DNA of 64,000 nucleotides from Escherichia coli (GTDB lineage Bacteria > Pseudomonadota > Gammaproteobacteria > Enterobacterales > Enterobacteriaceae). The DNA is taken from NCBI RefSeq assembly GCF_041886205.1, contig NZ_CP169029.1. One strand, given 5' to 3'. The notes below the pieces were generated by a model. That model was given only the letters and a program-made list of their open reading frames with translations, did no database searches and was not told the DNA's origin. Position 1 is the first letter of the stretch. Each line of letters starts with the position of its first letter. Shown piece by piece: positions 63,338 to 64,000 of the stretch. The position numbers and the translations under genes are program-made.

Positions 63338-64000
63338 ATGGCTTCGACAAATGCGCATCAAATAAAAAATAATGATCAAAACTCTTTATGTGGTCTGGGT
63401 GACAAAATACGCCGCCTGACCGCCGGAGTTTGTTTATTTACACAAATTTTTTTCCCCGTCATGGCGACGGCACAAAATGTGGTACATGCTAAATCTCAGA
63501 CGACAGTTTCATCTGCGCCCCCTCTAATAGAAAATAATACTGTGCCTTACACGCTTGGTGCGCTGGAATCAGCGCAAAGCGTTGCTGATCGATTCGGTGT
63601 TTCACTGGAGGAGCTTCGTCGTCTTAATCAGTTCCGTACTTTTGCTCGCGGCTTTGATAACGTGCGCCAGGGTGAAGAACTGGATGTTCCGGCAACAACC
63701 TCGCAGAAAAGCCATGAGCAACAAAATGCCGTACCGCCTGCGAATGGCGAAAACACGCTGGAGAATCAAATAGCCAGCACCTCGCAGCGAGTTGGCACTC
63801 TGCTTTCACAAGATATGAATAGTGAGCAGGCCAGCGGCATGGCGCGTGGTTGGGCGTCTTCAGAAGCCTCAGGCGCGATGACTGATTGGTTAAATAACTT
63901 TGGCACTGCGAGAATCTCTCTGGGTGTGGATGAAGATTTTAGCCTGAAAAATTCGCAATTCGACTTCCTGCATCCGTGGTATGACACACCCGATTATCTC
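63338..64000 (+). CDS. intimin/invasin-family inverse autotransporter adhesin, N-terminal part (LysM then start of beta-barrel); continues past window end
   Basis: Open frame from ATG at 63338 to the window end with no stop: MASTNAHQIKNNDQNSLCGLGDKIRRLTAGVCLFTQ... LysM-like YTLGALESAQSVADRFGVSLEELRRLNQF, then GTARISLGVDEDFSLKNSQFDFLHPWYDT typical of the intimin/invasin barrel start. Confidence 0.6.
   Translation, partial: MASTNAHQIKNNDQNSLCGLGDKIRRLTAGVCLFTQIFFPVMATAQNVVHAKSQTTVSSAPPLIENNTVPYTLGALESAQSVADRFGVSLEELRRLNQFRTFARGFDNVRQGEELDVPATTSQKSHEQQNAVPPANGENTLENQIASTSQRVGTLLSQDMNSEQASGMARGWASSEASGAMTDWLNNFGTARISLGVDEDFSLKNSQFDFLHPWYDTPDYL

Follow-up and report, generated by a model that had tools for sequence, protein, structure and literature searches.

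Gene organization at the end of the window

The window, a stretch of 64,000 nucleotides of Escherichia coli DNA, ends within a gene for an inverse autotransporter. Its last 663 nucleotides comprise the promoter-proximal part of iatD, codons 1-221, and the rest of the gene lies past the window edge (Table 1). The upstream neighbor is yjiJ, encoding an MFS transporter of 392 amino acids, with its stop codon at 63127. An earlier note, made from the letters of the sequence, had placed the adhesin gene immediately after yjiJ. It is indeed the next gene, but the two do not abut, being separated by an AT-rich spacer of 210 bp. The frame was described there as open to the window edge with about 220 visible codons; it runs without a stop through 221 codons, from the ATG at 63338 to base 64000. 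The chance of 221 stop-free codons, computed from this base composition, was about 1.2e-5. The peptide quoted in that note, GTARISLGVDEDFSLKNSQFDFLHPWYDT, was located at residues 189-217.

The ATG at 63338 is the earliest possible start past an in-frame TAA at 63242, as ATG, GTG, and TTG are absent between the two. A Shine-Dalgarno-like hexamer, GGAAGG, is present at 63327-63332, 5 nt upstream of the ATG. The iatD promoter presumably lies within the 210-bp spacer. A scan of 63050-63450 for sigma-70 consensus sequences returned two promoter-like sites versus 1.6 expected by chance, and no promoter was assigned; a terminator scan of the same interval found none. Rfam (E<=1) gave no match for 63000-64000, and a repeat search of these positions returned a single 13-nt two-copy match, which is probably due to chance. 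The GC content was 0.36 for a 400-nt block spanning the spacer, measured in the near-identical contig L004 (see below). By analogy with fdeC, the AT-rich spacer upstream of iatD suggests that the gene may be subject to H-NS-type silencing.

Table 1. Positions of the iatD features in the window
Feature	Position	Strand	Basis
Spacer between yjiJ and iatD, AT-rich, 210 bp	63128..63337	+	Direct sequence reading
iatD (inverse autotransporter adhesin IatD), codons 1-221	63338..64000	+	Open frame; 100% DNA identity to ET201 iatD
Extended Sec signal peptide (predicted), aa 1-45	63338..63472	+	Hydropathy scan and conserved motif
Interrupted poly-C tract (C-G-CCCCC), codons 60-62, in frame	63516..63522	+	Allele comparison
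Divergent LysM domain (periplasmic; peptidoglycan-binding fold), aa 67-121	63536..63700	+	Structure model and Foldseek; sequence profile below threshold
Start of IAT translocation domain, aa 148-221	63779..64000	+	Pfam IAT_beta, E=1.2e-12

Identification of the gene as iatD

Positions 61900-64000 were compared by megablast with 5426 complete E. coli genomes. Strain ET201 matched with 100% identity, and its annotated features were "yjiJ" and "iatD: inverse autotransporter IatD". The ET201 gene is intact, starts at the base corresponding to position 63338 of the window, is 5241 nt long, and is followed by the convergent gene kptA. The position is that of iatD: yjiJ lies upstream in the window, and kptA lies downstream in ET201, in four near-identical draft contigs (L004-L007), in SMS-3-5, and in Sakai. 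We are thus highly confident that the region is the 5' end (663 nt) of iatD, an accessory gene on the chromosome that encodes a type Ve inverse autotransporter adhesin of 1746 amino acids. The proposal of an intimin/invasin-like inverse autotransporter was thereby supported, and the gene is an already known one, named, catalogued (PGAP "iatD", Sakai ECs5290), and partly characterized.

Membership in the IatC family was rejected. The NCBIfam model NF040978 scored 1125.7 bits with the full protein and 263.7 bits with the fragment against a cut-off of 2400 bits.

Some gene calls for iatD start past the true ATG, yielding a protein of 1678 amino acids in one draft genome (L007, 15042-20078) and a gene of 5103 nt for Sakai ECs_5290 (L015, 8587-13689). 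Such late-start calls drop the signal peptide, and automated iatD annotations are therefore inconsistent.

Domains of the visible 221 residues

The first 45 residues consist of a polar N-terminal extension, a basic KIRR motif (residues 23-26), and a hydrophobic core, LTAGVCLFTQIFFPVMATA (residues 27-45). Kyte-Doolittle means over 15 residues reached up to 1.8 in this core, which ends in A-T-A, so that the N-terminus is signal-like as had been claimed. Cleavage is inferred to occur after A43-T44-A45. The pattern CG.G..LRRLTAG.CL.TQ..FP..AAA is conserved across homologous N-termini. Judged solely by hydropathy and motif, the region is predicted to be the N-terminal Sec signal peptide typical of inverse autotransporters.

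The LysM-like segment was the weakest part of the original claim. Pfam LysM matched the fragment with E=0.011 and 16.1 bits, below the threshold of 20.9 bits, and phmmer found a weak match of the segment to a Thermus LysM domain (4UZ2, E=0.018). For a test of the fold, 24 homologous N-terminal fragments were aligned, and residues 47-221 were modeled with AlphaFold. The model was confident only at residues 67-121, with a pLDDT of about 80 and a strand-helix-helix-strand order. Nearly all of the best matches in a Foldseek search of the PDB were LysM domains, the periplasmic LysM domain of intimin (2MPW) among them. With isolated LysM domains, the rmsd was 1.7-2.0 A over about 49 residues and the TM score about 0.8; individual Foldseek E-values were weak because the domain is short. 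The assignment was retained because this structure-based test agreed with it, despite the sub-threshold sequence profile. As modeled, IatD probably possesses the periplasmic LysM domain that marks the subset of large inverse autotransporters (intimin, YeeJ, IatC, and IatD).

The beginning of an intimin/invasin beta-barrel was confirmed by profile search. Pfam IAT_beta (PF11924) matched residues 148-221 at profile positions 2-78 of 279 with E=1.2e-12 and 48.4 bits (cut-off, 22.3 bits). Residues 185-221 (from nt 63890) align with residues 1-37 of the crystallized barrel construct of invasin (4E1T). The window thus holds the first 74 of about 276 residues of the domain.

The full-length protein in near-identical contigs

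The anatomy past base 64000 was derived from near-identical draft contigs, chiefly L004; the part inside the window amounts to 221 of 1746 codons. The contigs were found via the exact sequence of a neighboring 755-residue protein (58501-60765). Over window positions 48501-64000, contigs L004-L007 showed 0-2 mismatches and 99.98-100% identity. All four of the contigs fetched carry an intact iatD of 1746 codons that starts at the ATG of the window, with 0-1 amino acid differences among them, and the 221 residues of the window are identical to the L004 protein. The full gene comprises 5241 nt, i.e. 1746 codons plus the stop codon. The prediction of a probably large protein was therefore borne out by 1746 residues in contigs 99.99% identical to 48501-64000 of the window. 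A frame ending shortly past the window edge would have spoken against the gene; in the closest relatives it continues uninterrupted through 1746 codons.

Both the barrel and the Big domains, for which the earlier note had advised an HMM search, were matched, the latter as Big_1 and Invasin_D3. In the full protein, IAT_beta spans residues 148-423 (E=6.8e-108), and this PF11924 barrel is N-terminal to the passenger. A PDB search with the full-protein barrel returned invasin (4E1T, E=1.1e-80) and intimin (4E1S, E=2.6e-66). Pfam recognized Big_1 in eight and Invasin_D3 in nine stretches of the L004 protein, and Invasin_D4 at residues 1564-1624 with E=3.7e-05 and 24.6 bits, just under the 27-bit cut-off. 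With an HMM derived from repeats of the protein itself, about 10 self-similar domains were detected, spaced about 100 residues apart from residue 547 to 1530. From this spacing, about 11 Ig-like domains were deduced between residues 447 and 1640. The protein of contig L004 thus has a C-terminal passenger of tandem Ig-like domains, the reverse of the order in classical autotransporters. Its residues 1257-1713 match residues 25-462 of invasin 1CWV, i.e. D1-D5 including the C-type-lectin-like cap, with E about 1e-23 to 1.2e-24 and a low identity of about 25-30% in this tip alignment.

Outside the window, a perfect hairpin (AAAGGATACCCT...AGGGTATCCTTT) and then a REP-like element follow the iatD stop codon (L001, 20680-20835), before the 3' end of kptA.

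Distribution and haplotype

Full-length iatD was found in 638 of the 5426 complete E. coli genomes (about 12%, roughly 1 in 8), always on the chromosome, as expected of a gene that had been called accessory. Of the 126 genomes considered by Goh et al. (2019, PMC6714894), 7 had a complete iatD, as did 10% of ECOR strains. The statement in the earlier note that K-12 has no such adhesin at this position proved correct: the stop codons of yjiJ and kptA are 12 bp apart in K-12, with no gene between them.

Upstream of iatD, a yjiK-like gene with an SdiA-regulated domain and yjiJ (61039-63127) have about 80% DNA identity to the K-12 alleles, and the outer flanks have 96-98%. A yjiJ of this diverged type, with 90% or more identity to that of the window, occurs in 636 genomes versus 638 with iatD. 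From this divergence and the near-equal counts we deduced that iatD is not a clean insertion but resides within an alternative haplotype that is old and spans about 10 kb. In the iatD haplotype, KptA is longer than its K-12 counterpart by 10 residues at the C-terminus (PFMSAGPQKQ). iatD itself has a GC content of about 0.48-0.52, near that of the remaining locus.

The same haplotype carries, at 58501-60768 on the plus strand, an AT-rich gene (GC 0.31-0.39) for a pentapeptide-repeat protein of 755 amino acids that is not present in K-12. The Sakai protein ECs5295, which carries the annotation "EspX6, T3SS effector-like protein", shares 81% identity with it. The gene contains tandem repeats of 9 bp (59997-60159) and 24 bp (60486-60675) whose copy number varies among strains, and the protein is 755 residues long here, 736 in ET201, and 735 in Sakai.

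When the last 20 kb (44000-64000) were compared with the 5426 complete E. coli genomes, no match was better than about 96%. The match to ET201 is mosaic, with 100% identity over about the last 3.4 kb of the window (past about 60.6 kb) and about 98.6% before. This pattern suggests that a recombination breakpoint may lie within the EspX6-like gene, at its tandem-repeat end. DNA near-identical to the last 15.5 kb of the window is known from draft assemblies only, e.g. GCA_014209675.1. An exact 72-mer from the window end had no match in a collection with one genome per species, and an exact-protein look-up with ET201 IatD returned ET201 itself as the sole match. iatD is a modest strain marker that travels with the yjiK-yjiJ allele of about 20% divergence and with the EspX6-like gene.

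Length variation of a poly-C tract in iatD

PGAP annotates iatD as "frameshifted" in O157:H7 SS NE 1040-1 and in 99RCEF, and in both the extra base aligned to a run of C residues at codons 59-61. Three kinds of alleles were distinguished at this site. An interrupted tract that keeps the reading frame occurs as GCGCCCCC in the window, ET201, and L004, as CCGTCCCC in SMS-3-5, and as CCTCCCCC in a 91.5% allele. An uninterrupted C7 is likewise in frame and is found in O145:H28, O157 AR-0430, and isolate AF39. An uninterrupted C8 shifts the frame and is found in O157:H7, including the Sanger-sequenced Sakai, and in 99RCEF.

Tract lengths were counted as exact matches of 78/79-nt probes in complete genomes. 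With the O157-type flank, C7 occurred in 21 genomes (O55:H7 strains, 493/89, LSU61, and about eight typical O157:H7) and C8 in 284; with the other flank type, C7 occurred in 80 and C8 in 3. Both flank types together gave C7 in 101 and C8 in 287 complete genomes. The window-type tract allele was matched exactly in one complete genome only. The spans of the matches further point to a single C6 (in O145:H28, otherwise C7) and a single C9 (in one O157 genome).

Ancestral O55:H7, the SF O157 strain 493/89, and LSU61 have C7, and typical O157:H7 has C8. The simplest reading of these alleles would be that the C8 frameshift became fixed early in typical O157:H7. Length variants within clones are rare (in O157:H7, 284 C8 versus about eight C7) and would then reflect slippage now and again, or else sequencing errors at the homopolymer in assemblies of long reads. 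It is also conceivable, albeit unlikely, that the tract acts as a slipped-strand ON/OFF switch of an E. coli inverse autotransporter, i.e. as a contingency locus in which C7 would be ON and C6, C8, and C9 OFF; window-like lineages would then have been fixed ON by the interruption, and typical O157:H7 would be OFF. As the tract is interrupted and in frame here, the coding sequence of the window copy is predicted to be stably intact, or ON. Neither a frameshift nor phase variation of iatD was mentioned by Goh et al. (2019, PMC6714894). The variation in poly-C length may be a new observation.

Entries with YeeJ-like N-termini were in many cases short and out of frame after the LysM segment or the early barrel (P0009, P0013, P0014, P0019, P0020, and P0029). 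This suggests that 5'-proximal frameshifts might be common in the paralogue yeeJ as well.

Proposed export mechanism and function

Type Ve secretion, as in intimin and invasin, comprises Sec export, binding of peptidoglycan by LysM, BAM-assisted insertion of the barrel, and hairpin export of the passenger. By analogy, the long signal peptide of IatD (residues 1-45) would direct the protein to Sec. The LysM domain (about residues 67-121) would remain in the periplasm, bind peptidoglycan, and possibly aid dimerization. BAM would insert the IAT_beta domain (residues 148-423) as a 12-stranded barrel, through which the C-terminal passenger would then be threaded outward. The passenger, a series of about 11 Ig-like domains (Big_1/Invasin_D3) plus a tip that resembles D4-D5 of invasin and bears a C-type-lectin-like cap, would form a long stalk presenting the tip.

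The genes iatA-D were named by Goh et al. (2019, mSphere, PMC6714894), who cloned iatD (EcSMS35_4876, 5241 bp) from SMS-3-5. For the SMS-3-5 protein, a LysM domain and a barrel were described along with Big1 repeats and a C-type lectin cap. Immunofluorescence showed the protein to be surface-exposed, and its overexpression in K-12 led to strong biofilm formation, with neither autoaggregation nor binding of extracellular-matrix proteins; it could not be detected in laboratory-grown wild-type SMS-3-5 (Goh et al. 2019, PMC6714894). The gene being known and functionally studied, no new biology arises from iatD itself.

Alternative readings

The source copy could be a pseudogene with an intact head in the window and a disruption further downstream. 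The window stops at codon 221, leaving the gene body past its edge, the iatD genes of O157:H7 SS NE 1040-1 and 99RCEF carry the annotation "frameshifted", and the frameshifting C8 allele is exact in 287 complete genomes. However, the known frameshift site lies inside the window, where it is G-interrupted and in frame, and the gene of 1746 codons is intact in ET201 as well as in all four contigs with 99.98-100% identity to the last 15.5 kb. A disrupted copy is thus very improbable. Confusion with a YeeJ or IatC paralogue, or a chimera with one, might be suspected, as N-terminal and LysM motifs are common to YeeJ-like proteins, yeeJ in 1170 genomes has about 77% identity to nt 199-1940 of iatD, and among NCBIfam models the fragment scores best with that of the IatC N-terminus (263.7 bits). 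We give this reading practically no credence: the IatC score is far under the 2400-bit cut-off, the fragment is 100% identical to an annotated iatD, the full gene is 97% identical to SMS-3-5 IatD without gaps, and the site between yjiJ and kptA is specific to iatD, with yeeJ located elsewhere on the chromosome. An intact iatD is the reading that we adopt.

A further question concerns what IatD does rather than what it is. The receptors of invasin and intimin are beta1 integrins and Tir, respectively. IatD might likewise be mainly a host-receptor-binding adhesin or invasin acting via its C-type-lectin-like tip, the biofilm seen upon overexpression then being a side effect. This view is compatible with the identification as intact iatD. 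Invasin D1-D5, with the D5 cap included, can be aligned with the C-terminal 455 residues (E=1.2e-24), the EspX6-like effector-type gene adjoins in a strain-specific segment of enteric pathogens, and the possibility was raised by Goh et al. (2019, PMC6714894). Against it stand the absence of adhesion to extracellular matrix in published assays (Goh et al. 2019, PMC6714894), the low identity to invasin (about 25-30%), the inactivation of the gene in typical O157:H7, and the occurrence of iatD in strains from frog feces and the environment. A predominantly receptor-binding role is therefore possible but doubtful.

Comparison with known systems

The closest characterized counterpart of the gene in the window is SMS-3-5 IatD (EcSMS35_4876, ACB20062.1), which has the same length of 1746 amino acids and a gene of the same 5241 bp. 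The L004 protein is identical to it at 1699 of 1746 positions (97.3%) without gaps. The order of domains (signal peptide, LysM, barrel, Big repeats, and lectin-like cap) is shared, as is the gene order yjiJ-iatD-kptA. The two proteins differ by 47 substitutions. Around codons 59-61, SMS-3-5 IatD has SPSP where SAPP is encoded here, and the base that breaks up the poly-C tract is not the same one in the two genes. Among the strains examined by Goh et al. (2019, PMC6714894), only seven in number, IatD was more than 98% identical. The 97.3% identity of L004 IatD to the SMS-3-5 reference is slightly under this range, and the two proteins are orthologues. Surface exposure and biofilm formation were demonstrated by experiment solely with the SMS-3-5 orthologue, which is 97% identical.

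In Sakai (O157:H7), ECs5290, annotated as "putative invasin", is the same gene at the same locus, and O157 alleles have about 97% DNA identity. The C8 tract of Sakai iatD shifts the frame at about codon 60, giving a head of 66 codons and a body of 1719 codons without a signal peptide, whereas the window allele is in frame. ECs5290 was listed as a "putative invasin" in S-loop288 that is not in K-12 (Ogura et al. 2007).

A comparison with FdeC, SinH, and YeeJ had been proposed by the earlier note. YeeJ, together with IatC, is the closest E. coli paralogue, and FdeC and SinH are more distant. YeeJ and IatC belong to the same architecture class and share the conserved N-terminal and LysM motif, and their barrel DNA is about 77% identical over nt 199-1940. 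They are encoded at other chromosomal loci, and their passengers differ in length and cannot be aligned to that of iatD at the DNA level. For YeeJ and IatC of SMS-3-5, lengths of 2359 and 2934 amino acids were given (Goh et al. 2019, PMC6714894).

IatD resembles invasin of Yersinia pseudotuberculosis (4E1T, 1CWV) and intimin (4E1S, 2MPW) in its barrel, and its LysM fold is like that of intimin. The identity of its tip to invasin is low, and its stalk is much longer, with about 11 Ig-like domains versus four in invasin.
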